The notes: generated by a model from the sequence alone, not told the origin. A stretch of 38,861 bases of DNA from a virus (IMGVR_UViG_3300011126_000093), one strand, 5' to 3'. Positions 2,424 to 36,906 are shown, numbered from the stretch's first letter. Program-made: numbers and translations.

Positions 2424-2467
2424 ACTATACCTGACCTGTTTTGTTTGTGTAGGACACTATGCGCCAA
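2424..2467 (-). promoter_or_regulatory. Box-type promoter (TTGGCGC-N5-GTCCTAC, 19 bp, TATAGT)
   Basis: Minus strand reads TTGGCGCATAGTGTCCTAC-N19-TATAGT, about 45 nt upstream of the ATG at 2379. Confidence 0.6.
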
Positions 2468-3050
2468 TTCGCTCTTTATGTTTCGCAACTTCAGCCTTTG
2501 CCGTTTTAATGAAATCATCATAATCCTGAGTGCTTCGCTTAACCGTTGTTTTTTTAACGTCTTGCATATGTATTACAAACTCTTCGCCAAACTCTCGAAT
2601 CATAAACAAAGTATAGAGCGATTCCCTGCCGTCGAATTTCATCCCGTTACCGTTGCAAGGTTTACACTGCGGCCAGATATTACGCGTGTCTAGCATCCAG
2701 TACGAGCTACTGCCTTTAGCTATGTAGTGACCGCCGTCGAACCCATCATTCCATCGCCCTACATGGCCACACGTTACGCATGTGCAAAAGCCGTTGTCAT
2801 CAGCACGCGAAATCCTAGCCAGCTCTTGAGCAACGATTAAAGCCTCAGCCCGTGGGTTTCGTCTAACCTTCTTTAATTGCTCCCTGTGCGCCGCTTTCCT
2901 GACCTTTTCGCCGTTAGCCTTGCCGTTAGTCGTCCTTACCCATTCCGTAGCGTGCTCAGGTGTACAGAAGGCGCCAGCGGGAACCGCTATCATAGATTGG
3001 GCTTCGAAGTAGCCTTTACAGTGCTTGCATCGCTTTTTACTATTCGCCAA
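2457..3050 (-). CDS. ninG: NinG/Rap-like recombination endonuclease
   Basis: N-terminal CKHC...C..EH zinc motif and C-terminal CVTCG...GGHY...CKPCN, as in lambda NinG (recalled from memory). Confidence 0.7.
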   Translation of the reverse strand: MANSKKRCKHCKGYFEAQSMIAVPAGAFCTPEHATEWVRTTNGKANGEKVRKAAHREQLKKVRRNPRAEALIVAQELARISRADDNGFCTCVTCGHVGRWNDGFDGGHYIAKGSSSYWMLDTRNIWPQCKPCNGNGMKFDGRESLYTLFMIREFGEEFVIHMQDVKKTTVKRSTQDYDDFIKTAKAEVAKHKERIGA

Positions 3051-3234
3051 TTTCCTGCCATCCCTTTTCAGTCAGAACCACACTGCCGAACTTTACTGTC
3101 ACTAGGTCTAGTGCAATAAGCTGCTTTACCATCGTCTTATGCCAATCTGCGCTAAAGCCTTTGCGTGTCTTGGTTGGTGTTTGAGTGTACTTTGCAATCT
3201 CAAATAGCCGTTCTTTTTGTAGTGTTGTTGTCAT
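3040..3234 (-). CDS. hypothetical protein (64 aa)
   Basis: ORF track; overlaps both neighbours by a few nt. Confidence 0.5.
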   Translation of the reverse strand: MTTTLQKERLFEIAKYTQTPTKTRKGFSADWHKTMVKQLIALDLVTVKFGSVVLTEKGWQEIGE

Positions 3235-3235
3235 T

Positions 3236-3424
3236 TTAGGCTCTTCTATTCCAATATTTAAAGTCGAAATTTCCGCCTTTATCTTTATATATCGTCATTG
3301 AAGGATTAGGACATAGCATAGAGACTCTGCCGCAACTAACTATTAAAAACTCTTCAGTATGTCGAATTACCACAGCCTTACTCCCACAAAACGGACACGG
3401 CTTTAACTCTTCTTTATTACTCAT
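3236..3424 (-). CDS. Lar-family restriction-alleviation-like protein
   Basis: ELKPCPFCGS at the N-terminus and YWNRRA at the C-terminus match the Lar-family pattern (CPFCG ... WNRRA). Confidence 0.6.
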   Translation of the reverse strand: MSNKEELKPCPFCGSKAVVIRHTEEFLIVSCGRVSMLCPNPSMTIYKDKGGNFDFKYWNRRA

Positions 3425-3821
3425 GTAACCCCCTAGACGGCCAAGGTACGTGTATGCCGTGCTCTGATAGCTTTCTATTTATGTGTTCATATATGAGCGA
3501 GTATTGCTCTCGCTTCGGCTTAGTGGTGCTTTCTTGATCGGTTACAGCCAGCTGTACTGGTCGCCAGATGTTGTCTTTTACAGTGCGCTCATTCCATTGA
3601 ACTTGAAATCCCGGCTTGAAGAATACCTGCTGCTCTATGCCTGCGTCGTTCATTGCATCCGATACCATCCTGCAGTACAAGTGCAATGCGCCGTTCTGAG
3701 TGAGTGTGCGCTGCTTGCCAGTGCTTACCTTAACCTTCAGGTATCTATCAGCTTCATAAGCCGCTGTAAGCTCTTGTATTGCTTCCTGCAAGCTTTGGTC
3801 ACTGTTTATAAGTAGTTCCAT
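3417..3821 (-). CDS. ninB: NinB/Orf-like recombination mediator
   Basis: RTLTQNGALHLYCRMVS resembles lambda NinB RSLDQNRKLWACLGDVS. The STTKPKREQY...HGIHVPW tail also fits. Confidence 0.65.
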   Translation of the reverse strand: MELLINSDQSLQEAIQELTAAYEADRYLKVKVSTGKQRTLTQNGALHLYCRMVSDAMNDAGIEQQVFFKPGFQVQWNERTVKDNIWRPVQLAVTDQESTTKPKREQYSLIYEHINRKLSEHGIHVPWPSRGLHE

Positions 3822-3862
3822 GCTAAGCCCAGTATGTTTTTTTCGTTTTCCGTGATTATCAT
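3806..3862 (-). CDS. possible 18-aa upstream ORF with a strong SD, overlapping the ninB start by 16 nt
   Basis: AAGGGGGTTAAGATG... encodes MIITENEKNILGLAWNYL*. The ninB ATG itself has no SD. Confidence 0.25.
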   Translation of the reverse strand: MIITENEKNILGLAWNYL

Positions 3863-3873
3863 CTTAACCCCCT

Positions 3874-3927
3874 TAATAACACCTCGTAGCGCGCGACTCG
3901 TGCCTCGCACGCGTACTCTTTGTTATT
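3874..3927 (-). repeat. Intercistronic hairpin element, subfamily 2 (about 75% identical to 10677-10731)
   Basis: TAATAACACCTCGTAGCGCGCGACTCGTGCCTCGCACGCGTACTCTTTGTTATT, with stem GCGCGCGA/TCGCACGC. Confidence 0.65.
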
Positions 3928-3929
3928 CA

Positions 3930-4097
3930 TCATCGGCAATGATTAATCTCATCGCACCACCAATCTGCCCACTCTTCAGGCGTCCATCCATTGTCGTTCT
4001 GCGCTTTCGGCATGTCTGTAGAGAAGTCATTGAACTGGTCAGGAATGCCTCTCTCTGCGCACCGCTTATTAAAGCGTTTAACAAAATCATCACTCAT
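3930..4097 (-). CDS. hypothetical protein (55 aa; below the ORF-track length cut-off)
   Basis: GGAGAGTACAGACTATG start; MSDDFVKRFNKRCAERGIPDQ...WWCDEINHCR. Co-oriented, and replaces the antisense track ORF 3834..4115. Confidence 0.5.
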   Translation of the reverse strand: MSDDFVKRFNKRCAERGIPDQFNDFSTDMPKAQNDNGWTPEEWADWWCDEINHCR

Positions 4098-4171
4098 AGT
4101 CTGTACTCTCCATGAATAACAAACATTTAAAATTGGACTGTCGCTAGCGCTCCAGCCCGTTAAAATTGGGG

Positions 4172-4387
4172 TTATGTGTATGCACTACCTTGCTGTCCAG
4201 TATCATTACTGCCAGAACAGTAGTTTCTATGGTTGTTTGCTTTCGGGCACCGCTTATTTCCACATTCTGGGCAAAGTATCATTCGATCAATTATTAAGTC
4301 ATTATCCCTATTGCATTGCCAACAACCACATAACAAGTCGCTTTTGTCGGACTTGCCTTGCTCGGTAGCTTCTTGTTTATCATTCAT
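4172..4387 (-). CDS. Cys-rich zinc-ribbon-like protein (71 aa)
   Basis: CGCWQC ... CPECGNKRC motifs. Confidence 0.55.
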   Translation of the reverse strand: MNDKQEATEQGKSDKSDLLCGCWQCNRDNDLIIDRMILCPECGNKRCPKANNHRNYCSGSNDTGQQGSAYT

Positions 4388-4452
4388 ACTGCTAAAACTC
4401 CGTTGTCTATCAAACTTCGCGTTTTATTGACGTCAAGCCGCAAAGCTTTGGG

Positions 4453-4755
4453 TTAAACATAATCCTGAAGCGCTGCTTTAAGCACCTGCGCTATGCGGCC
4501 ATCAGGATTAGCTTTGATATTCTCAGCTATTCCCGCGTCAAACTCCCGCGCCTTTTCCTTGCCTGAGTCAAAAGCCACTTCGATAATGTCTGACATCAGA
4601 TCCAAGTCATCGCAAGCCATACCGATCAAAGTATCAACGCGAGAGCATTGGTTCATCGCTGCGTCTAAGTGTCTGCGCTCTAATCCCGGCATAGGAAAGT
4701 CATCCCGCTCGTTCGTTTTATTTAGTAGTGCGTTAAAATCAAGTACGTTGTTCAT
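4453..4755 (-). CDS. hypothetical protein (100 aa)
   Basis: ORF track; box promoter 4779-4821 lies directly upstream. Confidence 0.55.
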   Translation of the reverse strand: MNNVLDFNALLNKTNERDDFPMPGLERRHLDAAMNQCSRVDTLIGMACDDLDLMSDIIEVAFDSGKEKAREFDAGIAENIKANPDGRIAQVLKAALQDYV

Positions 4756-4778
4756 CTCATTCCCTCAGTTTTTTATAG

Positions 4779-4821
4779 TCTATACCGTGCCTTCCTTGGC
4801 AGGTAGGACACTTAGCGCCAA
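4779..4821 (-). promoter_or_regulatory. Box-type promoter (TTGGCGC-N5-GTCCTAC, 18 bp, TATAGA)
   Basis: Minus strand reads TTGGCGCTAAGTGTCCTAC-N18-TATAGA. It begins right after the stop codon at 4822. Confidence 0.6.
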
Positions 4822-5031
4822 TTACAGGTCTTCAGACTTGATAAAAACGCCGTCAACTGTTTCACCAGTACGGTCTTTGATCTCAAGCCATGCTGCAAGC
4901 AAGCACTCGTTAAGAGTCATGCCGTTTTGCATAGCCAATATAATTAGAGTAACAACAACGTCGCCAATTCCGTCCTGTAGCTCGTCACGTTTGCCTACAC
5001 GCTTCAATCGCTTTGATTAAATCATCTGTAT
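4822..5031 (-). pseudogene. MazG-like pyrophosphohydrolase remnant, split or truncated
   Basis: The C-terminal part DGIGDVVVTLIILA...EIKDRTGETVDGVFIKSEDL is MazG-like, but it begins at TTG. A 16-aa ATG ORF (MNTDDLIKAIEACRQT*) sits in another frame. The EExxE region is missing. Confidence 0.45.
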
Positions 5032-5388
5032 TCATTCTTTATTTTCCTGTTTTTTGCTGTGCATAAAGTCTAAAACCGTCTCAGAGAACCATTGTGCAAG
5101 ATACGCAACGCTTTCATTGTTGTCTGGAGTTGGGTTTAATCCGCTTATCTTTGCTACGCCCATCGCAGCGTGTAGGCATTCGTGGACAAGGTGCGGAATA
5201 AGTAAACCCCCTTTTTCCTCTGGCAACCACATTACAATCTTTGGCTTCGCAACATCGACAAAAATCCAGCCGCCAAGCTCAGCATATTCATCATCAAACG
5301 GCCCAAACTTTCTTTTTAATTCATCTTCATTGGTACCAAAAAAGAAATCTAAATTGTAAATTGGCAGTCTTCTTTTATGTATCGTCAT
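5032..5388 (-). CDS. putative zinc metallopeptidase-like protein (HExxH)
   Basis: HECLH motif. Start taken at ATG 5388 (GGAAGCGAATAAGATG), which forms an ATGA overlap with the upstream small ORF. Confidence 0.45.
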   Translation of the reverse strand: MTIHKRRLPIYNLDFFFGTNEDELKRKFGPFDDEYAELGGWIFVDVAKPKIVMWLPEEKGGLLIPHLVHECLHAAMGVAKISGLNPTPDNNESVAYLAQWFSETVLDFMHSKKQENKE

Positions 5389-5552
5389 CTTATTCGCTTC
5401 CTTATTAGCTGCCAGCCTAGACAGTTTGCGCATTTAATCAAGCCGACTGACTGGAAGAATATGCCACCCGTGCCGATTAATTTATGGTCACAGGCGCATT
5501 CCGTTGGTTTAATCGCGCCGAGTTTCTCAGCGCGGGTTAGTAGGTCAGACAT
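5385..5552 (-). CDS. zinc-ribbon protein (55 aa; below the ORF-track length cut-off)
   Basis: MSDLLTRAEKLGAIKPTECACDH...CANCLGWQ. TAATG overlap with the upstream gene and ATGA overlap with the downstream gene. Confidence 0.55.
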   Translation of the reverse strand: MSDLLTRAEKLGAIKPTECACDHKLIGTGGIFFQSVGLIKCANCLGWQLIRKRIR

Positions 5553-5893
5553 TAACGTCGCTGGCCCGGAGGTGCCGGTTGTTGTTGATTGTATCCGCCT
5601 TGCTGGATCGGCTGTTGCGGCGCATATCCTTGCGGTGGCTGCTGGTATTGAGCGGGCTGCTGTTGTGGTTGCTGCTGGCCCTGCTCTTTTGGCTCAAACA
5701 ACGAGCACAATACAGTGTCGCGGTTATCTTCGTTAGGCACACCAGCCGGGTTAAAAGTGCGTTTCAGCATCAGGTATGGGCCGTTATCACCTTGCATCAT
5801 AACGCCAATGTTTTCGTACCGGCCTTTTGGCTGGCCTTGCGCGTCAGTGTATGAGCCTGTCTTTACTGTTACGTCGTATAGTTTGTGAGCCAT
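5552..5893 (-). CDS. hypothetical protein with a Q/P-rich C-terminal tail; possibly SSB-like, judged from position only
   Basis: Sits directly downstream of exo-recT. The tail QQQPQQQPAQYQQPPQGYAPQQP resembles an SSB linker, but there is no acidic tip. Confidence 0.3.
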   Translation of the reverse strand: MAHKLYDVTVKTGSYTDAQGQPKGRYENIGVMMQGDNGPYLMLKRTFNPAGVPNEDNRDTVLCSLFEPKEQGQQQPQQQPAQYQQPPQGYAPQQPIQQGGYNQQQPAPPGQRR

Positions 5894-6609: not shown

Positions 6610-7484
6610 TTAACACCGCCGTTACTTTTAACCGTAAGCGCCTGTATCGCGCTCTGTGCTGATTCCTCAGTAAGTTCTGACACTGGCATACCTAGCCATC
6701 TATCGAAGCGCTCTAGCGCCTCAGGAGGCACGTTGTCACGATATTGATTCAACCAACCTGCCGTCTCTGGCTGAATTGGCGTTACATCCCTAACGGCTTC
6801 ATCACTTTCAATTCCTTCATCACCTTCTGAATTCAGGTAATCAATCGCATGATTTAGGCGGTCAACCTTCGGCCAGTACTTTGACGCTCGCTTTACCACT
6901 GTCTTACGGCACATTTCCTCAAAATCGGTCATCCATGGGCCTTTGTTCTTCTTGCCTGATTCGCTTCTTGCTTTAATTGCATTAAGCTGAGCTATGCTCA
7001 TTTCTTCCGTCAGATAGGCACCTGTCGAAGTCTTAACAGTGCAGTAAGCGCCAATAATGGAACCACGGTCACCAAAGCTATTGCACTTATGTACAGGCGC
7101 TTTATCAATACCTTGATTTTCGTAAAAGTCAGCTTCATAGACTAGTTTCGACTGCCCCCACTCAATAGAGCCGGTAGACTGCGCCAAATGAAGCAAACCC
7201 ATGTATGAAATATCAAGGCATATTAAGCCTTTGCGTGGGACAAGATAAGCGTGCTTTCCTGCCGGGTTTAAGCTAATACCAATGGCTGAGGCATTGCGCA
7301 AAGCATTCTGTACGCTTACAGGGTTCTGCCTTGCCACATCAGCCGAGTAATCGTTAGCCAATAAAAGCTGTGTTGCGTAGTTCATTTCCGCTTGAATATT
7401 AATAGACTTGTGGCTCTGTATTAGCTGCACACACTCGGGCTCTACGCCTCTGATTATGTCTGGCACTTGCATTACTTTGTTCAT
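6606..7484 (-). CDS. recT: RecT-family single-strand annealing protein
   Basis: NPVSVQNALRNASAIGISLNP...AYLVPR is RecT-like. Start taken at ATG 7484 (AGGGGATTGATATG), because the track's GTG at 7511 lies inside the promoter -10. Confidence 0.75.
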   Translation of the reverse strand: MNKVMQVPDIIRGVEPECVQLIQSHKSINIQAEMNYATQLLLANDYSADVARQNPVSVQNALRNASAIGISLNPAGKHAYLVPRKGLICLDISYMGLLHLAQSTGSIEWGQSKLVYEADFYENQGIDKAPVHKCNSFGDRGSIIGAYCTVKTSTGAYLTEEMSIAQLNAIKARSESGKKNKGPWMTDFEEMCRKTVVKRASKYWPKVDRLNHAIDYLNSEGDEGIESDEAVRDVTPIQPETAGWLNQYRDNVPPEALERFDRWLGMPVSELTEESAQSAIQALTVKSNGGVK

Positions 7485-7509
7485 ATCAATCCCCTGTGTT
7501 GATAACCCC

Positions 7510-7554
7510 ACTATAGCTAAGCTGGGGGTTTTTGGTAGGACATTACGCGCCTAG
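7510..7554 (-). promoter_or_regulatory. Box-type promoter (TAGGCGC-N5-GTCCTAC, 19 bp, TATAGT)
   Basis: Minus strand reads CTAGGCGCGTAATGTCCTAC-N19-TATAGT, upstream of recT. Confidence 0.6.
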
Positions 7555-7555
7555 T

Positions 7556-8501: not shown

Positions 8502-8513
8502 TGTTTTACCTCT

Positions 8514-8563
8514 TAATAACACACGCCAGCATAAGACCTTCGGCTCACGCGTGCGGCGTTAGG
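8514..8563 (-). repeat. Intercistronic hairpin element, subfamily 1
   Basis: TAATAACACACGCCAGCATAAGACCTTCGGCTCACGCGTGCGGCGTTAGG. Shares TAATAACACA and AGACCTTCGGCT with 681-730. Confidence 0.55.
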
Positions 8564-8829: not shown

Positions 8830-8874
8830 ATCTTACCAACTCCACACAATCACGCTAGGACACTTTGCGCCTAG
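8830..8874 (-). promoter_or_regulatory. Box-type promoter (perfect dyad CTAGG-N10-CCTAG, 19 bp, TAAGAT)
   Basis: Minus strand reads CTAGGCGCAAAGTGTCCTAG-N19-TAAGAT; overlaps the dnaB stop. Confidence 0.6.
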
Positions 8875-10933: not shown

Positions 10934-11137
10934 TTATGTGTTTAATAGTTTATCAACGTCCCCCATCCATCGGATAACATCTTTAGCGTGCATGTTTTTT
11001 ATTGTTACAGCCTCTTTACCGTCATCTTTAGAGAAATAAGTTCTCATTTCACGCAAAAGCTCACACATAACAAGTGCGTCAACGCGACCGCCTAACTCTG
11101 TGCTTACTTCTGGTTTCTCTGTTTCGTTATCCATCAT
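10934..11137 (-). CDS. hypothetical protein (67 aa)
   Basis: ORF track; SD TGGAG lies before the ATG. Confidence 0.55.
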   Translation of the reverse strand: MMDNETEKPEVSTELGGRVDALVMCELLREMRTYFSKDDGKEAVTIKNMHAKDVIRWMGDVDKLLNT

Positions 11138-11185: not shown

Positions 11186-11231
11186 ATAAAACCACACTCA
11201 CCGCCCAAGCCATAGGACTGTTTGCGCCTAT
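11186..11231 (-). promoter_or_regulatory. Box-type promoter, weaker (perfect dyad ATAGG-N10-CCTAT, 20 bp, TTTTAT)
   Basis: Minus strand reads ATAGGCGCAAACAGTCCTAT-N20-TTTTAT. The -10 element is poor. Confidence 0.4.
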
Positions 11232-12100: not shown

Positions 12101-13036
12101 TCAACCCTCTTTAAACATGTTTAACAGGTTAGCAGCCTGCTCCTGATTTCGCTTCAGTTGCTCCGGCGTAGACTCTTGTCTTCTAACCGCTCTTGGCGAC
12201 ATCGCTGCATCTACGTCAACTTTAGTATTGTTCTGGTTGGTTTGGTAGGACGCATTGGGCCAAGTTAAAGGAACCTTCCAAGTTTCTTCAGTCAGATACT
12301 TAGTTATTCCGGGAACAAACCCGTTTCTCCAGCTTTCAGTCAGCTTCCGTTTTTTAACGTCTTCCAGCATTGCTGCAAAGTCGTCTTCAGTGAGACGCAT
12401 CTTCTTAGCTTTCTCCCACGGCGTTGCATCAGAACCACCGCGTCTGTTGGCTGGGTATTCAGCGTAAAACTGTTTCCAGTTGTCAGACTTCTTCAGTCTT
12501 GGCTTTTTTGGTTTCTCAGGTTTAGAGGTTTCTTTGTCTTCTGGAATCAAATCACACTGACCACCGTCGTCGCTAGACGCGAAATCTGTATTATTATTTT
12601 CTGTTCTATTCTCTTCTAATCTATTCTCTTCTAGAGGGTCTTTCTCGGATTTTGTCGGACTTTCTAGGACTCCTTTATTTTCAATGACTTGCGGCTTTTT
12701 TGCTGGATTGTCACTCCGTATTAGTTTTGCAGTGTAATCATCTGAAACCCTAGCCATTTTCAAGCAAGTGATAGTGCCTTGACTGTTTTCAAACAATCCA
12801 ATATCAACAAACTTCGTCATCATTTCCTGAACGCGCTGAGGTGTTGAGCCTGTATTTCTGGCTATAATTCTACAGTCATGCTCTAGCTCAAAAGTAAGAT
12901 TTCCCGGCTCTACCTTTCCAGCCACAAGCTCTAAGCAGTACCAGTACAGTCCGTAACCCTCAAGACCATAATCAAGTAAGACCTCTTGGAGTTTTGCGTC
13001 CATATTTGCTGTTGATTCGTGCTTAAACCATTTCAT
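12101..13036 (-). CDS. replisome organizer / replication initiator-like protein (DUF4373-type N-terminus)
   Basis: MKWFKHESTANMDAKLQEVLLDYGLEGYGLYWYCLELV matches the Lin1244/DUF4373 N-terminal pattern. Iterons lie in the central linker. Confidence 0.6.
   Translation of the reverse strand: MKWFKHESTANMDAKLQEVLLDYGLEGYGLYWYCLELVAGKVEPGNLTFELEHDCRIIARNTGSTPQRVQEMMTKFVDIGLFENSQGTITCLKMARVSDDYTAKLIRSDNPAKKPQVIENKGVLESPTKSEKDPLEENRLEENRTENNNTDFASSDDGGQCDLIPEDKETSKPEKPKKPRLKKSDNWKQFYAEYPANRRGGSDATPWEKAKKMRLTEDDFAAMLEDVKKRKLTESWRNGFVPGITKYLTEETWKVPLTWPNASYQTNQNNTKVDVDAAMSPRAVRRQESTPEQLKRNQEQAANLLNMFKEG
12222..12263 (-). promoter_or_regulatory. Box-type promoter-like site inside a CDS (TTGGCCC-N5-GTCCTAC, 17 bp, TACTAA)
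   Basis: Minus strand reads TTGGCCCAATGCGTCCTAC-N17-TACTAA, within the 3' end of the organizer gene. Confidence 0.35.
12606..12633. repeat. 2 x 13-bp direct repeat CTATTCTCTTCTA (15-bp period) beside an AT-rich tract; candidate origin iterons
   Basis: Copies at 12606-12618 and 12621-12633. Preceded by gtattattattttctgtt. Encodes LEENRLEENR. Confidence 0.5.
12641..12670. repeat. 3 x 10-bp tandem repeat TTT(C/G)T(C/A)GGA(T/C); candidate origin iterons
   Basis: TTTCTCGGAT TTTGTCGGAC TTTCTAGGAC read directly. Confidence 0.5.
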
Positions 13037-13725
13037 TGCAATGTATCCCCTTCATTAATTTTATTATTATGCTCAATAAACTGAGCGCTTATATTGTGTG
13101 ACACTTTTTCAAGCCACAACTTGAAAAATCTACCACCGTTCAGGTATAGAAAAAAACCTTCATACATGTTTTTTGCATAACCTAGTTGCCAAAGCATCAA
13201 GCCTCCATAGCAGAAATCCTCGTAACCGTATGTTCGCAATATAGCTAAATTCTCAATATCTCCACTCATCATATCGACGTGCTGAATTATTGATTCCTGC
13301 TTAATATGATCATCAGACAATTCTGACATTACGCAAAACATGCGTTCAGCCCCGCCATCAGGAAGGCAAATAACGTTCTCTACTTTTTTGTACACTTGGT
13401 CTATATCAAGGTAGGATTCACAAACCGCAAGCATTTTTGTAGCTACGTGAGCTATAGCTATCTCATCAGACTCGAACCGAAAGAATTCTTTATTACTAAC
13501 CCTTATCGAGTCGAATTCCCTATGTAGCATCTGCTCAACAACTTCTGGCTGAACAAAAAACTTAAAATAAGCATGATACAGACATTCAAAATCAGTAGGG
13601 ACGCCAGTACTTTTGCTTAGCTGACTAGTACGCTCGCTAACATCTTTTGTTGTAAAGCCTATTTTATATAAACCCGGCATTGATTCGTTTTTTAGAAGGT
13701 AAACGTAACCTGATTGTAATGACAT
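13033..13725 (-). CDS. T5orf172 (GIY-YIG superfamily) domain protein with an unknown C-terminal domain
   Basis: GYVYLLKNESMPGLYKIGFTTKDVSERTSQLSKSTGVPTDFE. The gene is visibly AT-rich (hand counts of 33-40% GC). Confidence 0.65.
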   Translation of the reverse strand: MSLQSGYVYLLKNESMPGLYKIGFTTKDVSERTSQLSKSTGVPTDFECLYHAYFKFFVQPEVVEQMLHREFDSIRVSNKEFFRFESDEIAIAHVATKMLAVCESYLDIDQVYKKVENVICLPDGGAERMFCVMSELSDDHIKQESIIQHVDMMSGDIENLAILRTYGYEDFCYGGLMLWQLGYAKNMYEGFFLYLNGGRFFKLWLEKVSHNISAQFIEHNNKINEGDTLQ

Positions 13726-13861: not shown

Positions 13862-13889
13862 ATTATAGCAATACCCCTCAAAATGTAAA
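13862..13889 (-). promoter_or_regulatory. sigma70-consensus-like promoter (TTTACA-16-TATAAT)
   Basis: Minus strand reads TTTACATTTTGAGGGGTATTGCTATAAT. About 140 nt upstream of the T5orf172 ATG. Confidence 0.6.
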
Positions 13890-14159: not shown

Positions 14160-14308
14160 TTTACAGCCTCCTTTTTCCCGGCGTCGGGAATATGGTTTAC
14201 AGCCTTTTTGTTGTGTACCCAGCGCTTAACGCCGTTTTTATCAATGTACCAGCGGCGCAATAGTCCGCTTTCAATGTCGTAAGTGTAGCCAAAGCCGCCT
14301 GTGATCAT
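14156..14308 (-). CDS. hypothetical protein (50 aa; below the ORF-track length cut-off)
   Basis: ATGA overlap with gene 14305..14640; MITGGFGYTYDIESGLLRRWYIDKNGVKRW... Confidence 0.5.
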   Translation of the reverse strand: MITGGFGYTYDIESGLLRRWYIDKNGVKRWVHNKKAVNHIPDAGKKEAVK

Positions 14309-14640
14309 GCCACACCCTTCCTTAAGCGTCGGTTTACGCAGTACTTAATACTGATAGCGGTGGTGTTATAAATTGTCGCTATCTCGGCCCATGTCAGTCC
14401 GTGCCCTGAGTTCTTAAGCTCGCAGATAGCCGCTATTTCATCGTCAGAGTATATGGCCCCGTAGGGTTTGCTTTTGTCAACAACAGACACTCCGTGACGC
14501 TTAGCATGTCGTCTGATTTGTATCTCAGTCATCCACGGTAGGCGATCCATCATCACCTGCAAGCCCAAACCTTCACACTCTTTCAATGTGCGCAGCTCTG
14601 GGGCTTTTAAAATATGGTACTTGCGTTTGTTATCACTCAT
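14305..14640 (-). CDS. putative helix-turn-helix DNA-binding protein (111 aa)
   Basis: C-terminal GLTWAEIATIYNTTAISIKYCVNRRLRKG looks like an HTH. Confidence 0.45.
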   Translation of the reverse strand: MSDNKRKYHILKAPELRTLKECEGLGLQVMMDRLPWMTEIQIRRHAKRHGVSVVDKSKPYGAIYSDDEIAAICELKNSGHGLTWAEIATIYNTTAISIKYCVNRRLRKGVA

Positions 14641-15775: not shown

Positions 15776-15820
15776 ATATTAGCTAACTGATTAAGCGGAG
15801 GGTAGGACGGAACGGGCCAA
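15776..15820 (-). promoter_or_regulatory. Box-type promoter, leftward early (TTGGCCC-N5-GTCCTAC, 20 bp, TAATAT)
   Basis: Minus strand reads TTGGCCCGTTCCGTCCTAC-N20-TAATAT. Confidence 0.55.
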
Positions 15821-15831
15821 CTTGCAGGCAT

Positions 15832-15853
15832 AAAAAAGCCCCAGTTAAGGGGC
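15832..15853 (-). terminator. Rho-independent terminator (minus strand) between the divergent promoters
   Basis: Minus strand reads GCCCC-TTAACT-GGGGC followed by TTTTTT. Confidence 0.65.
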
Positions 15854-15891
15854 AAGGTGTCGAAGGGGATCAACGGGGAAAATATAGCATG

Positions 15892-15935
15892 TTGGCGTGA
15901 AGTGTCCTACAAATTTATTTACGGGGCGGTATAGT
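15892..15935 (+). promoter_or_regulatory. Box-type promoter, rightward (TTGGCGT-N5-GTCCTAC, 19 bp, TATAGT)
   Basis: Plus strand reads TTGGCGTGAAGTGTCCTAC-N19-TATAGT, 25 nt before the ATG at 15961. Confidence 0.6.
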
Positions 15936-15960: not shown

Positions 15961-16272
15961 ATGAGCTATGACGACATCATCGAGAAACGCAGACTAGACG
16001 CGATTGACGCGAGAGAGGCTGCCAAAAAGGCGCTAGAAGCTCGTGCCGATGAAATATACGCAGACAGTAATATGGTTGGCGATATGATGTTAAGCATCGC
16101 TGATACTCACTCAAAGACTTACGATATTAACGACGACAATATCGTTCACGAGCTAGTTATTAGTACGATACTGAATGAAAACGATCCAGTGAAGCTTGCA
16201 GTAGCAATCGAGAAGTTTCGCGGGATTTATTACAAACACTCTTATGCCTTGGCTGAAAAGGAGAATAAATAA
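15961..16272 (+). CDS. hypothetical protein (103 aa)
   Basis: ORF track; SD AGAGGG. Confidence 0.6.
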   Translation: MSYDDIIEKRRLDAIDAREAAKKALEARADEIYADSNMVGDMMLSIADTHSKTYDINDDNIVHELVISTILNENDPVKLAVAIEKFRGIYYKHSYALAEKENK

Positions 16273-16907
16273 TGACTAAACTAGTCGAATGCTACGTTGC
16301 AAACCCTACACACGATGAAGCTGTTGAGATTATCGAGCGGCTGATTGCTAATGGGGCGCCCACTCATGATGTTGTTGGTGTGATGGATGTTTATGGCATC
16401 AAATATGCCTATGACGAGCGCAATTGTTGGGGATATTATTCAGAGTTTGGAACTTACACGCACGACACGAATTCCGACTGGGCTAGACGATCCAAGCAAC
16501 TAACAATGCCAGAATTCCGCGCGGCTTTTCCTTGTGATAAGTATGATGAGGTTAATTCGGGGTTACAGGTAGGTGAAATCATGGAGCTGGTAGAAGATAC
16601 TGACTTTTTCTCTGCACAAACTGGCGAATCAACAACACTTAAAACCGGTCATAAAGTTGTTATCGCTGGAGTTGCTACACGCTACGACAATAACGCGACA
16701 TGCGCAGTTGTACAGTCAACAACAAATACAAGTTGTGGTTTTTGCGTCCTAAATCCTGATTTCTTACGCCCTGTTAAATCAGGCCGCGATAAGTTTGTTA
16801 AGGCTGCAAAGAAACCACTCGAAGAAATGCAGGTATCAAGTGGAAACGCTGAACGCATGGCAGAAGCTCTCTACGACGCTGGATTCAAAGCACCGGAGGC
16901 TAAATAA
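16272..16907 (+). CDS. hypothetical protein (211 aa)
   Basis: ORF track; TAATG overlap with the upstream gene. Confidence 0.6.
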   Translation: MTKLVECYVANPTHDEAVEIIERLIANGAPTHDVVGVMDVYGIKYAYDERNCWGYYSEFGTYTHDTNSDWARRSKQLTMPEFRAAFPCDKYDEVNSGLQVGEIMELVEDTDFFSAQTGESTTLKTGHKVVIAGVATRYDNNATCAVVQSTTNTSCGFCVLNPDFLRPVKSGRDKFVKAAKKPLEEMQVSSGNAERMAEALYDAGFKAPEAK

Positions 16908-17023
16908 TGACAACATTACTAGCTTATTTACTGCTAACCAATTTCAGTCCAGAGCATTCGGGATGGCTTTATGTTCTGCCTGTGTTATTTGATCTTGTAA
17001 TAATTGGAAGAATTCAAAAATGA
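16907..17023 (+). CDS. small hydrophobic peptide (38 aa; below the ORF-track length cut-off)
   Basis: GGAGGCTAAATAATG start; MTTLLAYLLLTNFSPEHSGWLYVLPVLFDLVIIGRIQK. Overlaps both neighbours. Confidence 0.5.
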   Translation: MTTLLAYLLLTNFSPEHSGWLYVLPVLFDLVIIGRIQK

Positions 17024-17121
17024 CTGCTTACAAACTATCGCTGTTAGTTCTACTCGTTGTCGTGCTCGTTATATCTAACGAGATGATCTTTCAAGACTGC
17101 GTTCAATTCGGAGTGTGTTAA
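17020..17121 (+). CDS. small hydrophobic peptide (33 aa; below the ORF-track length cut-off)
   Basis: ATGA overlap; MTAYKLSLLVLLVVVLVISNEMIFQDCVQFGVC. TAATG overlap with the next gene. Confidence 0.5.
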   Translation: MTAYKLSLLVLLVVVLVISNEMIFQDCVQFGVC

Positions 17122-17297
17122 TGACTACAATGATGCCCTATTACGTTTATGTGCGCGACGATACCGGCTGGCACGTTGCGCGGTATTACCCGAAGATGGA
17201 CGAGTACTATCTAACCGGAAATCCTGATCCTATCGAAGCTGAGGATTTCCACTTTATCGGTAATAAGGTTGACATGACAAAAGGCGGTGAGGCATGA
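17121..17297 (+). CDS. hypothetical protein (58 aa)
   Basis: ATG 17121 after GGAG (the track start is GTG 17115). Confidence 0.55.
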   Translation: MTTMMPYYVYVRDDTGWHVARYYPKMDEYYLTGNPDPIEAEDFHFIGNKVDMTKGGEA

Positions 17298-17770
17298 AGA
17301 TCTACGGGCACGACGGCAAGCATTACAAAGTTTACATGACATCGCCGCTTAATCAGGTAGAGCATTGGATTATTAGATTCAAGAATCAGCTGATGTATCG
17401 CGGGCCTGACAAGAAAATACGCTTTGTTGTGGAAGAAATCGACGGCAAGAAAACCACGGTTCACAATGTCGATTATGAATTAAAGAGTGGCTACAAATGG
17501 GATGGCGCAAGCATCCCTAAGCGTACCCAGTGGCTAATAGGAAAGCCCACAGACCCGGAGTTTCGCGTAGCTAGCTTATTCCACGACTTAGGCTATGAAA
17601 ACCGATCACGGCGCGTTCTGCAAGATGTGGTGTTCTATTTCCTACTTTGCAAGTCGCCGGTTCCGAGATGGAAAGCGGACTTAATGTACAAGGCCGTGCG
17701 AGCGGGAGGCCACATATACTACGCCTCTGACACTAGCAAGTTCTGGCGCAAAGTGCGGGGTTGGCTATGA
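17294..17770 (+). CDS. DUF1353-like protein
   Basis: YKWDGASIPKRTQW...ASLFHDLGY...MYKAVRAGG matches the DUF1353 pattern (DGASIP / HD). Confidence 0.6.
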   Translation: MKIYGHDGKHYKVYMTSPLNQVEHWIIRFKNQLMYRGPDKKIRFVVEEIDGKKTTVHNVDYELKSGYKWDGASIPKRTQWLIGKPTDPEFRVASLFHDLGYENRSRRVLQDVVFYFLLCKSPVPRWKADLMYKAVRAGGHIYYASDTSKFWRKVRGWL

Positions 17771-17982
17771 GTTGTGAGATTCATCCCAACAAAATGGCAT
17801 TTCCTGATAAGGCAAGCGCCATGACTCATATTAAAGTAGGGAGGGCCAGCAAGAGTAGTCTAGGAAGTAAAAAGTTGCGGCCCTACTTGTGCTCTAGCTG
17901 CGACCAATGGCACTTAACATCAGTGAGCAAGGTAACAGCTAGAAACATAAGAAAGGCGCTAAGAAAGCAGGCTACGGATTGA
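17767..17982 (+). CDS. zinc-ribbon protein (71 aa) with a Y-x-C-x2-C-x2-WHLTS motif
   Basis: ATGA overlap start. CEIHP...YLCSSCDQWHLTS. The 3' end overlaps the convergent endolysin gene by 11 nt. Confidence 0.55.
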   Translation: MSCEIHPNKMAFPDKASAMTHIKVGRASKSSLGSKKLRPYLCSSCDQWHLTSVSKVTARNIRKALRKQATD

Positions 17983-29190: not shown

Positions 29191-29196
29191 GTTAGG

Positions 29197-30417: not shown

Positions 30418-30428
30418 TTTATATCACC

Positions 30429-31392: not shown

Positions 31393-31408
31393 CTTTTGAC
31401 TATAAACG

Positions 31409-31430: not shown

Positions 31431-31451
31431 CTTCTTATTAGCTGGTTGGGG

Positions 31452-32459: not shown

Positions 32460-34633
32460 GATGCAATAACCCTCAGTAGGTCCTCGTTGCTCATTCCTCT
32501 AGCGGCACTCCTCAAGGTTGCCTTTCGCATCTCTTGAACTTTAGCCATATTATCAAGTTGCTGGCCTTCGATCTCGGTCATGGTCTTATTGACGTCCATT
32601 CCTGACTTCTGCGCTTTCTGTATTGCTTCAAAGCGCTTAGTTTCAGCATTGAACATATCGACCTGCTTATCGACCATAGCCGCTTGACCTTCCATCATGC
32701 GAGCCTGTCCTTCCATTGCCATGGCTTGCGCTTGTGGGTTCTGCTGCTGCTGAGCCTGCATGACCTGCTGGATAGTGATTTGCATAATGGCTAGCTCTTC
32801 TTCAGAGCGGATGCCTAGCTTTTCAGGTGGGTAGCCGTTCATCAGCAACGGTAGCGACTGCTGCACCAGTGACTGAATCTGCTGAATGCGTGCCAGTGTC
32901 CGCATATCTTGCATACCTTCGCCAGTGGTGTTCGTGATTGCGCTCAGTAGTGCCATCTGCCCCAGCGGCGTACCAGAGTCGGCGTATTGAAGAATCTCAA
33001 TAGCCGCGTTTCTCTCGGCATCCTTCTTTGTTCTGTAGCTCTCGCCTTGCTTAATAGATACATCATAACGCCCGCGTGCTGTGTTCTTTGTTGCGCCGTA
33101 TACATCGCGCTGTTGATCGTATGACGGAACCATGGTTTCAATCTGGACGTAGTTACCATCCTCCTCCATACCTCGACGCTTGCGGGGATTAGTGAAGTAC
33201 AGCTTCTGCGCTGCTGGTATCCACGTTCGACATGCAACACGGATAGAACTTGAGGCAGAAGTCATTAATGGAAGGAACGCATCGTCAGTACGCTCGTTTA
33301 CTTGCTGAATTGCAGAGGCACTTGAATTGCTTGGTAGTGTCGCCTGCCCATTGGCTGACTGCTCTTGAATGTTCTGCGATAAGAACTGCAAGCTCGTAAC
33401 AAGCCCGGAACGTGCCTCTGGTGGATCATACCGACCAATTGGGCCAACGTGTCTAATAGAGCCGTCAGCTTCTCGTACTGGGTCACTTAGCAGGAATGGG
33501 CGGTTTATTACTGACTGCTCCGCTCTTGCTTGACCGTGTCGCTCCATTTGCTCTGGTAGGTATTCAGGCTTAGATACTTGCGGCTCTGACAGAATTTCCA
33601 TTAACGCACCAAAGCCCATGTTTAGAAATCGCTGCGAGTCACGCTGACGGCATACTTCACCGCAATAGAACTCAATACCGTTGATTTCGTGGTGATAGCC
33701 GTACATCGGAATCAATGGAATATTCTTAAACGGCAGTTTGGCTGGCTTAGTCAGATACTTATCACCTGACATAATCGCGTACTCAACGAACTTAACCTTA
33801 CGGCGCTTTTCGTCGTATTCGTTTATTTCAAGTATTAAATCAACGTCGTCCTTGTCGATTCGCTCACCATCCGGGCCAATGTATTTGCGGCCATCTTTAG
33901 TGATTAAGAAAGTACCGCCATCGGCATCGTAAACCGAATACTCGACAATAGTCTTAGTGACTAACTCATAGTAGTGAGCAATATAAACATCGCGGCCACC
34001 ATCGCCACACGTCCAAGAGAAGTCACCGTTAGACATTGTGCCGGCAGGAAACGAGCTGAAATCAACGCCGTATTCTTCTTCTGTCTTCTCACGATTAACG
34101 CGCTGCAAGTGCCAACCTTGAACGGCGTCCGTCTTATCACGACGCAAGGCACCAGCATTGAAGAACACACTAGACGCAGCGGAGCCGATCATTTCAAAGG
34201 ATAGGTATTGCTGGTCATCTTGCGGGTCTTCTTCATCTTCGTACTTGGCCACCTCTTTGTACGCACCGAATCCACCGAAGGCGGCTTCCTCAAACGCTTT
34301 ATTGATAGCATCTGCGCCATCAGAGCCATTAAAGTCGTTGCGCCATAGCTTCTGCAATGTCTCAGCATCGTCATCAGTGGCTTCATCGCTTGCGCTTGAA
34401 ATCTTTGCGCCAAATTCAGCTTCTTGGAATCGTCCGATGATGGCCATGATATTTTTAAAGAGTTTGTTGTTTTCTGGCTTCGGTTTATTCGCCCACTGCT
34501 TACCATCCGAGCCTACCCACTGCTTGCCGGGAATGAGCGCGAACTCTAAATCAGCTATGACTTGTTGACGCAGGTCATACTCGCTTGAGTAAGCCTTTCG
34601 GAAATCTGTTAGCGTTTCTGTAGCTGCTCTCAT
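32456..34633 (-). CDS. portal protein (P22-type, with a C-terminal helical barrel)
   Basis: 725 aa, directly downstream of TerL. Long Q/M/A-rich helical C-terminus (QQVMQAQQQQNPQAQAMAMEGQARMMEGQ...). Confidence 0.8.
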   Translation of the reverse strand: MRAATETLTDFRKAYSSEYDLRQQVIADLEFALIPGKQWVGSDGKQWANKPKPENNKLFKNIMAIIGRFQEAEFGAKISSASDEATDDDAETLQKLWRNDFNGSDGADAINKAFEEAAFGGFGAYKEVAKYEDEEDPQDDQQYLSFEMIGSAASSVFFNAGALRRDKTDAVQGWHLQRVNREKTEEEYGVDFSSFPAGTMSNGDFSWTCGDGGRDVYIAHYYELVTKTIVEYSVYDADGGTFLITKDGRKYIGPDGERIDKDDVDLILEINEYDEKRRKVKFVEYAIMSGDKYLTKPAKLPFKNIPLIPMYGYHHEINGIEFYCGEVCRQRDSQRFLNMGFGALMEILSEPQVSKPEYLPEQMERHGQARAEQSVINRPFLLSDPVREADGSIRHVGPIGRYDPPEARSGLVTSLQFLSQNIQEQSANGQATLPSNSSASAIQQVNERTDDAFLPLMTSASSSIRVACRTWIPAAQKLYFTNPRKRRGMEEDGNYVQIETMVPSYDQQRDVYGATKNTARGRYDVSIKQGESYRTKKDAERNAAIEILQYADSGTPLGQMALLSAITNTTGEGMQDMRTLARIQQIQSLVQQSLPLLMNGYPPEKLGIRSEEELAIMQITIQQVMQAQQQQNPQAQAMAMEGQARMMEGQAAMVDKQVDMFNAETKRFEAIQKAQKSGMDVNKTMTEIEGQQLDNMAKVQEMRKATLRSAARGMSNEDLLRVIAS

Positions 34634-34637
34634 TATC

Positions 34638-36323
34638 TCACCAATAGTTCACGGGATTGACATAGACCGAATCTAACGGCTTTTCTTCCCTATGAATGAT
34701 ATTACAATCATTGTCAAATGAAATTATAACTGAATCAAAAAGGTTTGGCGACGGTATTACCATTCGCTTTCCGTCAGGCATTATGACGCCCTTCCTCATT
34801 TCCGGCTTGGTGTAAAATTGAACCGTAGGGCCAGACTTGACAGGAACCTTGCACGCTTCAGCCTTAAGCTTTTGCATCATGCGCGGCTCTATCGTTTCAG
34901 AATCGAAGCTAACTAATGTTTCAGGGTCGTAATACTTACCCTCTACCACGGCCTCATATGTTCTATAAACACGGTCGGCAAACTCGGTGATGTTCTGAGC
35001 TTTCTTGTTCTTTAGTACGTCTTTAATCAATAAACGCTTAGCATTGTTATTCAGATTAGACACCTGAGACTTAAACTCGCCATCTGGATTGTGAGGCGTC
35101 TCAGAACCTTTGTATGCGTTTATCTTTACGCTCTTGCCATTGAATGCCGCTGATACATTATCCCGAAGCGTTGCACCTAGTCCGTCTGCATCATATCCGA
35201 ATGAATCAACCTGATTTAACACTGCCAGCTTGCAGGCTTCGTCCATCTTGCGATTGCCGTTCTCGCCATCAATCTCTTGAATGTGACTAAATACAACACC
35301 AGTCCGTATACTGAATCCGAATGGGTCGGTACCAACATCAGAAGGGTCGGCAGTGGCAACACTCAAGCCGCGACCCTCAAAGCCTAATTTCTTATGAGCA
35401 TCAATACACGCTTCAAACCAGTCTTCCTGAATAATTGAAGTCGCGCAATTATCGTTAAAGTCACCATTCCAGATACCGTTAAACCTTGCTTTGCTCATAA
35501 TGCGCTTTTTAACCTTTTCGCGGTCTTTGCTTATTTCAGCTTGAAGGGATTCGTCATGCTCAAACCACGGATTATCCTTGTACGTTAGTTTAACAATATA
35601 GTGGTATTCGTCCTCGTAGAATCCATCGCGGTCTAAAGCGGCTTGATAAGGCGTAATGAATTCTTTTGACATCGGGTCTTCAGAGCTTGCGGTATTCCAC
35701 AAATACCAGAGTTCAGCGCCTTGCACATCCCTAAGCGTTGGACCTAATGTGTCGATAGTGTTCTGGCTTGTTTTCTCTGACTCTTCCATCAAAAAGTATT
35801 TAAAGTCTGACGTTCCTTTCATGTCGATGATATTTTGCATACCACCAAACACGAACTTCCCTTTTGACGAATGGCGTATCTCCCAACGAGAAGGAACGGG
35901 AAGGAAGCCGCCAACGTTCATTTTTTTGATAGTTGTTTCAATACCAGAGTAGATAGATTCTTTGAGCGCTGTCATTCGCTCCCTAAGTGCGTATGCCTTG
36001 CATCCAGTGGATGATACCTGACTAACCATTACATTTTGTGCGAAGCGCGTCTTCATGCCGCCACGACCGCCAAACAGGCACTTATACTTTTTGTGCTTCA
36101 GTATCAGGGGTTCCAATTTCTCAACCAGAAGAACGTCAGGCTCTTCATCGGTTGGAACCATTTCACCTATCTTTCCCTTCCAGCATCTAATGACATTTGG
36201 CACTAGCTCGCCGTCTATTTTATCAACACGGTCAATAACACCATAAACGGCAGGCTTTAGGTTTCCTGACATCGCATTGGCCAGAACTTCAATATTGTCT
36301 AAGCGCTTGCTAAGACTGAGCAT
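34638..36323 (-). CDS. terminase large subunit
   Basis: Walker A FGGRGGMKT, Walker B-like YFLMEE and 561 aa, following the small subunit. Confidence 0.85.
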   Translation of the reverse strand: MLSLSKRLDNIEVLANAMSGNLKPAVYGVIDRVDKIDGELVPNVIRCWKGKIGEMVPTDEEPDVLLVEKLEPLILKHKKYKCLFGGRGGMKTRFAQNVMVSQVSSTGCKAYALRERMTALKESIYSGIETTIKKMNVGGFLPVPSRWEIRHSSKGKFVFGGMQNIIDMKGTSDFKYFLMEESEKTSQNTIDTLGPTLRDVQGAELWYLWNTASSEDPMSKEFITPYQAALDRDGFYEDEYHYIVKLTYKDNPWFEHDESLQAEISKDREKVKKRIMSKARFNGIWNGDFNDNCATSIIQEDWFEACIDAHKKLGFEGRGLSVATADPSDVGTDPFGFSIRTGVVFSHIQEIDGENGNRKMDEACKLAVLNQVDSFGYDADGLGATLRDNVSAAFNGKSVKINAYKGSETPHNPDGEFKSQVSNLNNNAKRLLIKDVLKNKKAQNITEFADRVYRTYEAVVEGKYYDPETLVSFDSETIEPRMMQKLKAEACKVPVKSGPTVQFYTKPEMRKGVIMPDGKRMVIPSPNLFDSVIISFDNDCNIIHREEKPLDSVYVNPVNYW

Positions 36324-36792
36324 TCAACGACTCTTCAATCTTAGCAATGCGTCCTTGCAGATCTGTCACCTCTTCAATCTTAGCAACGTGCGCCAATGCC
36401 GAAAGCAAGTTAACGCCTGTATCAGGGGATATTTCACCGCTTGCGATGGCTTTCTCAATAGCTGCTGATTTTTCTGTCAATGTTCCACTCTCTGGATAAT
36501 CAAACTCAACAGGCGGGGATAAGGCTTTCATGCTAGACCAGCCTTTATCCATCATAGCCTTAAGCAGCATAGCTCCGTTCTTCTCATCGACTACAGATTG
36601 ACGTGCGACGTGCTCCCAGTACTTTAGCTCTACTAGCTCGCGCACCTCACTGTCTCGCTTGCCCTCTGTATCTATGTCTTCAACACCCATGACAGCAGCA
36701 GCACGAATACCTTCTAAGATTCGCGTCTTATTGCTTTTGCCTCGGCCAGGAAGGTTGTCACCCGGCTTTAGAGTTGTGCTATTAGTAGTCAT
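36310..36792 (-). CDS. terminase small subunit
   Basis: LKPGDNLPGRGKSNKTR resembles the GQSGNPxGRPKG TerS N-terminal motif. Overlaps TerL by 14 nt. Confidence 0.6.
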   Translation of the reverse strand: MTTNSTTLKPGDNLPGRGKSNKTRILEGIRAAAVMGVEDIDTEGKRDSEVRELVELKYWEHVARQSVVDEKNGAMLLKAMMDKGWSSMKALSPPVEFDYPESGTLTEKSAAIEKAIASGEISPDTGVNLLSALAHVAKIEEVTDLQGRIAKIEESLNAQS

Positions 36793-36821
36793 AACGCCTT
36801 ATTCTTGCCTTATCTAATACA

Positions 36822-36850
36822 AATATACACCAATTCACGCCACGTTTGAA
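36822..36850 (-). promoter_or_regulatory. sigma70-like promoter upstream of terS (TTCAAA-17-TATATT)
   Basis: Minus strand reads TTCAAACGTGGCGTGAATTGGTGTATATT. Back-to-back with plus-strand box promoter 36862-36906. Confidence 0.45.
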
Positions 36851-36861
36851 TATATCTTGAT

Positions 36862-36906
36862 GTGGCCCATTGTGTCCTACCCTGCCTAGCAATGCGTTGC
36901 TATTAT
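36862..36906 (+). promoter_or_regulatory. Box-type promoter for the plus-strand two-gene cassette (GTGGCCC-N5-GTCCTAC, 20 bp, TATTAT)
   Basis: Plus strand reads GTGGCCCATTGTGTCCTAC-N20-TATTAT. Confidence 0.5.

Follow-up and report, generated by a model that had tools for sequence, protein, structure and literature searches.

Introduction

Promoters in which a DNA-binding protein acts at or near the -35 region are known from several phages and from bacterial stress regulons. In this work we compare these systems with a box that recurs nine times in IMGVR_UViG_3300011126_000093, a viral DNA of 38,861 nucleotides (nt) whose full length is referred to as the window, and with a small protein encoded by the open reading frame (ORF) at 14305-14640, here called gp111, that is a candidate for reading it.

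The MotA box of phage T4, (a/t)(a/t)(a/t)TGCTTtA, is centred near -30, 11-13 base pairs (bp) from the -10 element. MotA has a double-wing DNA-binding domain, requires AsiA, and is made from ordinary early promoters. The Mor and C proteins of phage Mu are small helix-turn-helix (HTH) activators that act at about -51 to -33 (centre -43.5) on promoters with a -10 element and no -35 element, and both are dimers on dyad-symmetric sites. Lambda CII and P22 C1 recognize TTGC-N6-TTGC flanking the -35 element, and the CII tetramer binds these direct repeats at about -38 to -25 in three lysogeny promoters. Operators dispersed over many promoters are also known, namely those of P1 C1 and the stoperators of mycobacteriophage L5 gp71.

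No earlier description of the box or of the gp111 family was found among GenBank phages, protein collections and the literature, where a search by sequence words gave noise only. The regulatory logic is that of known systems, from which the sequence and the protein family differ.

The Box Promoters

A preliminary description of the window claimed a phage-specific promoter class with a box in the -35 region, and this claim held up. All nine copies that it listed are present in the sequence at the positions and on the strands given there (Table 1), a real -10 element lies downstream, and the orientation is fixed, every copy pointing toward the next downstream gene as judged from site and ORF positions. 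The box also makes up the top two families, D1 and D2, of an unbiased repeat search of the window. When at most one mismatch was allowed, GGCS-N6-GTCCTA (S is G or C) was found 11 times, nine of them exact, as against 2.3 +/- 1.4 matches (maximum 6) in dinucleotide shuffles, none of which (0/100) reached 11. Within the window, 9/13 GTCCTA hexamers belong to a box, and a position weight matrix (PWM) built from 31 distinct sites returned exactly nine sites at the cut-off of >=14 bits, with no weaker extras.

TAnnnT is found 18-21 nt past GTCCTA at eight of the nine sites (background 6.3%; binomial p = 2e-9), and the gap from GTCCTA to the hexamer is 20 or 21 nt, or 19 at one site. The ninth site (site 5) has an extended -10, TGG-TTTTAT. 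A full TGn accompanies the TAAGAT, TTTTAT and TATTAT hexamers, and the three weakest hexamers are not all compensated in this way. Two details of site 6 had to be revised: the hexamer first read as TACTAA is better read as TAAAGT at 12219-12224 (gap 21), which is kept as TAnnGT in relatives, and the site is intragenic rather than intergenic. At a spacing of 16-18 nt the best matches to TTGACA average 2.7/6 compared with 2.5/6 at random positions, and no -35 element above chance is present at any of the nine sites. Of the two canonical sigma-70 elements, the promoters have a -10 hexamer at a fixed gap and lack the -35 hexamer.

When the hexamer is placed at -12 to -7, which assumes the start site, the 19-mer TTGGCSC-N5-GTCCTAC spans about -50 to -32 with its centre near -41. 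On that assumption the class II position proposed earlier (a site at the -35 region, centred near -41.5) also holds.

Conservation of the Box and Its Spacing

Relatives were gathered by pattern scans of IMG/VR and of a metagenome collection, together with contigs encoding DnaB or factor homologues. The same box was recovered in three lineages of uncultured, deeply diverged P22-like podophages of about 38.7-39 kb (DnaB 35-39% identical). Lineage A, the window group, comprises nine contigs with 70-99% nucleotide identity in shared, heavily mosaic segments. Lineage B comprises IMG/VR 3300010430_000306 and the complete Logan contig SRR11646519_7706 (DnaB 39% identical to the window's; about 10 boxes), and lineage C is ENA ERZ23500159 scaffold_45 (DnaB 35% identical to the window's and 50% to that of lineage B; 4-5 boxes). 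Five further relatives (L250, L251, L255, L001 and L002) have neither the box nor the gp111 family.

A total of 72 distinct sites were compared, 52 from lineage A and 20 from lineages B and C. The 20-21 nt gap and the orientation are the same in all three lineages: TAnnnT stands at gap 20 or 21 in 20/20 sites of lineages B and C, and in lineage A the best -10 match is at gap 20-21 in 47/52 sites, with TAnnnT in 41/52. A G at -14 is present in 53/72 sites and a full TGn in 16/72. Orthologous sites, compared only at positions left free by the search pattern, diverge by 0-0.07 beside the box and at three bases of the hexamer (T, A and the final T), as against about 0.3 in the spacer and the flanks. 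Selection thus acts on box and hexamer alike, at a fixed distance from each other. Selected elements with free DNA between them are the signature that would be expected of a promoter with an upstream element read by a protein in register with the polymerase.

The box had been described as having dyad symmetry. Two perfect 5+5 dyads do exist in the window, but the dyad is not conserved across the 72 sites and the three lineages. The conserved core is the asymmetric TGGCSC-N5-GTCCTAC, in which TGGC is always distal to the -10 element; the two halves are different sequences, their order relative to the -10 element is constant, and their centres are about 11.5 bp apart. In lineage B the base before GG is always T, and the base ahead of that T varies. 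The symmetry is incidental, and the conserved object is an oriented, bipartite, asymmetric site. A bipartite monomer is therefore favoured over a symmetric dimer as its reader.

Comparison With Known Systems

Class II marboxes have a forward orientation and are centred between -36 and -55 (PMC12052159). Like the MarA, SoxS and Rob promoters of this class, the box promoters have a bipartite site without symmetry, about 19-20 bp long, whose halves face neighbouring major grooves and suit one two-HTH protein (predicted here); its forward orientation is fixed and its centre lies in the same range; the -35 element is replaced and sigma-70 reads the -10 element. The sequences differ. The marbox consensus AYnGCACnnWnnRYYAAAY has an A-rich second recognition element (RE2), and positions 16-17 are C and T rather than A and A in all nine copies. 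In the marbox frame the first element (RE1) is GC(G/C)C in the window, and GCAC at only one site in the relatives, while RE2 is GTCCTAC in place of RYYAAAY; the overall match of about 10/14 is not significant once offsets are allowed. The resemblance to the marbox is architectural only because the proximal half differs in all copies. The candidate protein also lacks an AraC/XylS-family sequence match (no Pfam family) and is modelled as two small tri-helical bundles with a flexible linker, and a phage system for the whole early/middle programme stands here in place of a stress regulon.

The earlier likening to T4 MotA is sound for the logic but not for the sequence, the position or the protein fold. 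As in T4 middle promoters, a phage box stands for the -35 element, the sigma-70 -10 element is kept, there are many early/middle copies, and the factor is phage-encoded (a candidate in the present case). Unlike the MotA box, the box has an unrelated sequence, ends 19-20 nt from the -10 element and is centred near -41, and the factor gene lies behind a box promoter and not behind an ordinary early promoter. Neither a MotA double-wing domain nor AsiA was detected among the window ORFs in family scans (Pfam/PHROG), which took in the ORFs of the early, rightward and lysis regions of the window and about 20 ORFs of the lineage B segment L190.

The box promoters share with those of Mu Mor/C a small phage HTH protein (again a candidate), a similar position and a -10 without a -35 element, but the box is asymmetric and Mor/C sites are dyad-symmetric. 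Membership of gp111 in the Mor/C family is not indicated: there is no Pfam Mor match, and the Mor structure 1rr7 ranked 46 in the fold search with a probability of 0.07. With lambda CII and P22 C1 the system has in common the lambdoid/P22-like background, a phage activator (candidate here) acting in the -35 region and a -35 element that is weak or missing; the recognition sequences are unrelated, and CII is a tetramer on direct repeats and serves three lysogeny promoters.

The Candidate Box-Binding Protein gp111

The product of ORF 14305-14640 had been named among the candidates as an HTH protein, and it is now the best of them: it is modelled with two HTH units, its family is present in 3/3 box-bearing lineages, and comparative and model data together make it the likeliest reader of the box. 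In the AlphaFold2 model (mean predicted local distance difference test score, pLDDT, 75), one chain forms two tri-helical units, with helices at residues 13-21, 27-33 and 39-49 and at 66-77, 84-90 and 95-107; the bundles (13-49 and 66-107, pLDDT 70-85) are joined by a linker of about 16 residues. An oriented bipartite 19-bp site would call for a monomer carrying two HTH units, and gp111 is modelled with two such units. Local fold matches include sigma region 4 on -35 DNA (3n97, probability 0.90) and domain 4 of SigR and SigW. Whole-chain matches to the bipartite DNA-binding domains of Tc3 and mariner-type (SETMAR) proteins have a low probability (0.16-0.20), and in BFVD the matches are small tandem-HTH phage proteins, including Myb-like and psq-type ones (E ~4e-3).

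The family is very rare, with four 90% clusters among 5.8 billion proteins and two full-length representatives in an exhaustive hidden Markov model (HMM) search of 1.84 billion proteins; the remaining HMM matches are generic multi-HTH repeat proteins with HTH_23, HTH_38, Sigma70_r4 or Myb domains. The early regions of the box-bearing phages are almost completely shuffled between relatives, and of all early proteins in a presence/absence matrix, only that of ORF 14305-14640 is retained in each of the four close mosaic relatives whose sequence includes the region. The lineage B member, P0138, has 108 amino acids (aa) and is 37% identical to the window protein (BLASTP E = 2e-10); it is encoded on the same 38.7-kb contig as L249. 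The lineage C member (L252:1834-2151) has 105 aa (hmmsearch E = 3.8e-11). DnaB, NinG, DUF1353, TerS and the lysis genes are also common to the three box lineages, and each of them occurs in at least one box-less relative; beyond these and the gp111 family, the three lineages have no gene in common.

Other candidates were considered. The T5orf172/GIY-YIG-like protein is absent from most box-bearing relatives, the O-like initiator has no detectable counterpart in lineage C, and both were rejected as the common factor. The family scans gave no other DNA-binding candidate. No family member is encoded in the 29 kb of the lineage B contig 3300010430_000306 (L189, L190 and L248), which has 6 boxes; this contig was rejected as a counter-example because it is incomplete: it stops exactly at the divergent promoter region, so that the whole leftward operon is missing. 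SRR11646519_7706, whose DnaB is 92% identical to that of this contig, carries P0138 in its leftward operon.

How the Box May Be Read

We give about even chances to the following mechanism. The nine sites would be sigma-70-type promoters of early/middle genes that keep the -10 element, usually with G at -14, and lack a -35 element, in place of which stands the box T-T/A-GGC-S-C-N5-GTCCTAC at about -50 to -32. One gp111 molecule would bind the box with each HTH in one of two successive major grooves and, from this fixed position and orientation, would touch RNA polymerase, probably sigma region 4 and/or alpha, substituting for the -35 contact. This would be class II activation, as by MarA/SoxS at class II marboxes or by Mu Mor/C. 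An activator is suggested rather than a repressor because the orientation is fixed, the spacing to the -10 element is held within +/-1 nt and the -35 element is missing.

Several results weigh against activation by gp111. Pfam (E <= 0.01) assigned no family to ORF 14305-14640 and called no HTH, which leaves the earlier HTH label to the model, and the whole-protein fold search against the PDB gave no significant match (all E >0.7). The family members of the three box lineages are only 27-37% identical, yet 13 box positions are invariant, which is unusual for a phage factor and its site. The co-occurrence of box and family is not independent evidence because all these phages are relatives, so that shared ancestry confounds it. 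Two additional P22-like phage lineages, L254 (6545-6886; E = 4e-7) and L256 (4995-5330; E = 7e-5), also encode distant family members but have no box at >=14 bits; these proteins have at their C-terminus the GFDAYPxR tail of the lineage B and C proteins, and they may have a different DNA specificity or may be a counter-example. Repeat and gapped-dyad searches of L254 and L256 for a variant box gave nothing convincing. Finally, the factor gene sits behind a box promoter in every lineage and a near-consensus sigma-70 promoter is absent from the early regions of L249, L257, L252 and L253; a pure activator is therefore left without an obvious start at time zero. Possibilities for this start are basal transcription from the -10 element and G at -14 that bootstraps a positive loop, a virion-delivered protein, a host factor, or a Cro-like repressor.

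A bolder form of activation by gp111, which we regard as rather improbable, is that the family consists of free-standing "-35 readers", a new sigma-region-4-like tandem-HTH family that docks on host RNA polymerase and gives the phage a private promoter class for its whole early/middle programme, the first promoters to fire included. Such a protein would either be delivered together with the DNA or bootstrap from basal transcription at the -10 element alone, and sigma would be appropriated without an AsiA-like partner and without a host-type early promoter.

It is unlikely, in our estimate, that the architecture is as proposed and a host protein, for example a recruited MarA/Rob-like AraC-family monomer, reads the box, with ORF 14305-14640 having another role such as that of a modulator. 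This reading draws on the early promoters: every recognisable one has the box, including PL and PR, and lineages B and C are without a canonical sigma-70 promoter, so the reader should precede phage expression. A box that stays invariant over such divergent candidate proteins points the same way, and the frame of the box fits the marbox loosely while its position fits class II marboxes (PMC12052159). However, the strict box followed by TAnnnT had only 3 unrelated matches in 596 Gb of genomes from 185,579 species and none in a marine gammaproteobacterium. Matches of this pattern among 241 million metagenome records come from these phages, apart from scattered single ones. Both results speak against a host regulon built as strictly, but the power of the genome test is low, since host sites tend to be degenerate. 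A host factor also leaves unexplained why the very rare tandem-HTH family accompanies the box when the rest of the early region is shuffled.

The proposal that the box is an operator, and that ORF 14305-14640 encodes a Cro-like or P1 C1-like repressor of early/middle promoters read via the -10 element and G-14/TGn alone, is judged quite unlikely. A repressor needs neither a fixed orientation nor a spacing of +/-1 nt, yet both are essentially invariant in the 72 distinct sites. With no -35 match and with the full TGn missing at most promoters, factor-free activity should be weak, and the hexamers are often imperfect (TAAGAT, TTTTAT, TAAAGT). On the other side, repression would solve the time-zero problem, operators dispersed over many promoters have the P1 C1 and L5 gp71 precedents, and the frequency of G at -14 and of TGn given above is in its favour. 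The location is also of the Cro type, the factor gene lying in the first early operon in the window group and being the first gene after PL in contig 3300006467_000144.

A reading of the box itself as an alternative-sigma core promoter, either of the sigma-54 type (-24/-12, TGGCAC-N5-TTGC) or of the extracytoplasmic function (ECF) type, in either case with TAnnnT irrelevant, is highly improbable. In its favour, (T)TGGC(G/C/A)C in the left half makes a good -24 element, TTGGCACG occurs at one site in relatives, and the N5 is that of sigma-54 promoters. The sigma-54 reading was rejected because CC replaces the invariant -12 GC in all copies of the three lineages (GG-N10-CC) and because the downstream hexamer keeps its T, A and final T at a fixed distance, which a -24/-12 promoter does not need. 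The scanned window ORFs gave no enhancer-binding ATPase match, and for the -35/-10 pair of an ECF promoter a separation of 5 nt between the halves is much too small.

Genome Context and Features of the Window

The window is a complete, circularly permuted genome of 38.9 kb from an uncultured marine P22-like phage; it is taken as whole because the relative L038 (5383-5874) reads across window ends 1 and 38861. P22-like morphogenesis genes encode TerL, portal, coat and an Hc3-type head closure protein. The nearest cultured phages are Vibrio phages of the Nahant collection (hosts V. lentus and V. cyclitrophicus), with TerL 52-62% identical; only structural genes are shared with them, and they have no box. 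Megablast of 25 kb against GenBank phages gave no nucleotide match. The non-structural genes resemble a lambdoid nin region and encode an O-like initiator, DnaB, RecT, a RecE-like exonuclease, a MazG-like protein, NinB, a Lar-like protein and NinG. No N- or Q-like antiterminator was found among the window ORFs in the family scans, and a tRNA scan and an Rfam scan were both empty.

Table 1. Promoters, terminator and candidate factor gene of the window. Gaps are counted from GTCCTA to the -10 hexamer.
Feature	Position	Strand	Sequence elements	Location and predicted target
Box promoter 1	2424-2467	-	TTGGCGCATAGTGTCCTAC, 20-nt gap, TATAGT	ORF 2191-2379 and small ORFs downstream
Box promoter 2	4779-4821	-	TTGGCGCTAAGTGTCCTAC, 19-nt gap, TATAGA	ORF 4453-4755, then NinB, Lar-like and NinG genes; orthologues in relatives
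Box promoter 3	7510-7553	-	TAGGCGCGTAATGTCCTAC, 20-nt gap, TATAGT	RecT-like and RecE-like exonuclease genes
Box promoter 4	8830-8873	-	TAGGCGCAAAGTGTCCTAG, 20-nt gap, TGG-TAAGAT (extended -10)	Directly after DnaB-like gene
Box promoter 5	11186-11230	-	TAGGCGCAAACAGTCCTAT, 21-nt gap, TGG-TTTTAT (weak hexamer with TGn)	Upstream of ORF 10934-11137 and DnaB-like gene
Box promoter 6	12219-12263	-	TTGGCCCAATGCGTCCTAC, 21-nt gap, TAAAGT	Inside 3' end of O-like replication-initiator ORF 12101-13036
Box promoter 7 (PL)	15776-15820	-	TTGGCCCGTTCCGTCCTAC, 21-nt gap, TAATAT	Heads leftward operon with ORF 14305-14640
Box promoter 8 (PR)	15892-15935	+	TTGGCGTGAAGTGTCCTAC, 20-nt gap, TATAGT	Divergent from PL; ORFs 15961-17982
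Box promoter 9	36862-36906	+	GTGGCCCATTGTGTCCTAC, 21-nt gap, TGC-TATTAT	Two-gene unit, ORFs 36941-37305; divergent from TerS/late operon
Host-type promoter	13862-13889	-	TTTACA, 16-nt spacer, TG-n-TATAAT	Only near-consensus host-type promoter in the window; upstream of T5orf172/GIY-YIG-like ORF 13033-13725
Intrinsic terminator (strong)	15838-15853	-	GCCCCTTAACTGGGGC then T6	Directly upstream of PL box
Candidate box-binding factor (gp111)	14305-14640	-		111 aa, isoelectric point 9.5 (basic), modelled as two tri-helical HTH bundles

Seven of the boxes are spread along the 15.7-kb leftward early/middle block, one serves the rightward operon 15961-17982 and one the unit at 36941-37305. Leaders of about 17-50 nt are predicted for eight of the promoters, and one of about 115 nt for box promoter 6. 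Orthologues of box promoter 1 are found in L018, L038, L122 and L253, and those of box promoter 5 have TTTTAT, TTTACT or TTTGAT as the hexamer. Box promoter 6 is kept in the window group and in lineage B (L249 7096, L190 4903), with TAAAGT, TACAGT or TAATGT in relatives; lying within the O-like initiator gene, it could provide transcriptional activation of an origin, by analogy with the lambda ori inside gene O. At box promoter 3, the true start of the RecT-like gene is probably the ATG near 7484. A hairpin (AACCCC, 15-nt loop, GGGGTT) surrounds the -10 element of this promoter at 7510-7535 (minus strand); in relatives it shows the compensatory form AGCCCC...GGGGCT (L018) and a G-T intermediate (L122).

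In the PWM scan no box reached the >=14-bit cut-off in the late operon, which runs from 36792 down to 17972. Upstream of TerS, at 36820-36860 (minus strand), there are only a degenerate box-like GTGGCGTGAATTGGTGTA and a weak TTCAAA, 17-nt spacer, TATATT. Three relatives (L201 9839, L220 6580 and L038 8277, all plus strand) have an ORF inserted between TerS and TerL and, ahead of it and overlapping the stop codon of TerS, an additional box of more degenerate sequence (ATGGCTGATAATGTCCTA; TAGGAT or TAGAAT at gap 21); the window has neither this box nor the inserted ORF.

The terminator next to PL would insulate this promoter from upstream minus-strand transcription. The terminator, TTTTTTATGC and the box also occur as one unit in the distant lineage B (L190 2541-2576, terminator 2541-2556).

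The host-type promoter, which lies downstream of the factor gene, shows that the host reads ordinary sigma-70 promoters and provides a contrast class to the box promoters. A homologous T5orf172 cassette in L190 has its own promoter (TTGAAA, 16-nt spacer, TGnTATAAT). In the window the host-type promoter comes after a conserved junction, GGGGCACTCCTTAAAC; L122 (3289), L124 (4410) and L193 (11895) share this junction but have a box promoter (TTGGCACGTCTTGTCCTACC) behind it and then another gene, in L193 a methyltransferase gene after ORFs of 77 and 138 aa. This variation looks like a swap of promoter modules.

Two further repeats were observed. The family D3 repeat, of 37 nt, is intergenic and has three copies (680-716, 3873-3909 and 8513-8549), each a short GC-rich hairpin and then, on the gene strand, TTATTAA; this repeat may serve as an intercistronic terminator or a processing element. 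At 38052-38087, three overlapping 18-nt copies with 9-nt spacing amount to four units of the 9-nt repeat CTTCTTTGG, which encodes a (KPK)n run in the small ORF 37989-38141.

Significance

If activation by gp111 is correct, the 19-bp box with its -10 element and a protein of about 110 aa would be a compact orthogonal promoter-factor pair, for which the PL/PR region (15776-15935) and one protein offer a compact test case. The gp111 proteins would then be a new family of bipartite HTH transcription factors. The system also poses the question of how a lytic phage starts when every recognisable early promoter, including that of the factor gene itself, needs the factor. In these phages a lambdoid/P22-like gene set would be run from many internal factor-dependent promoters.

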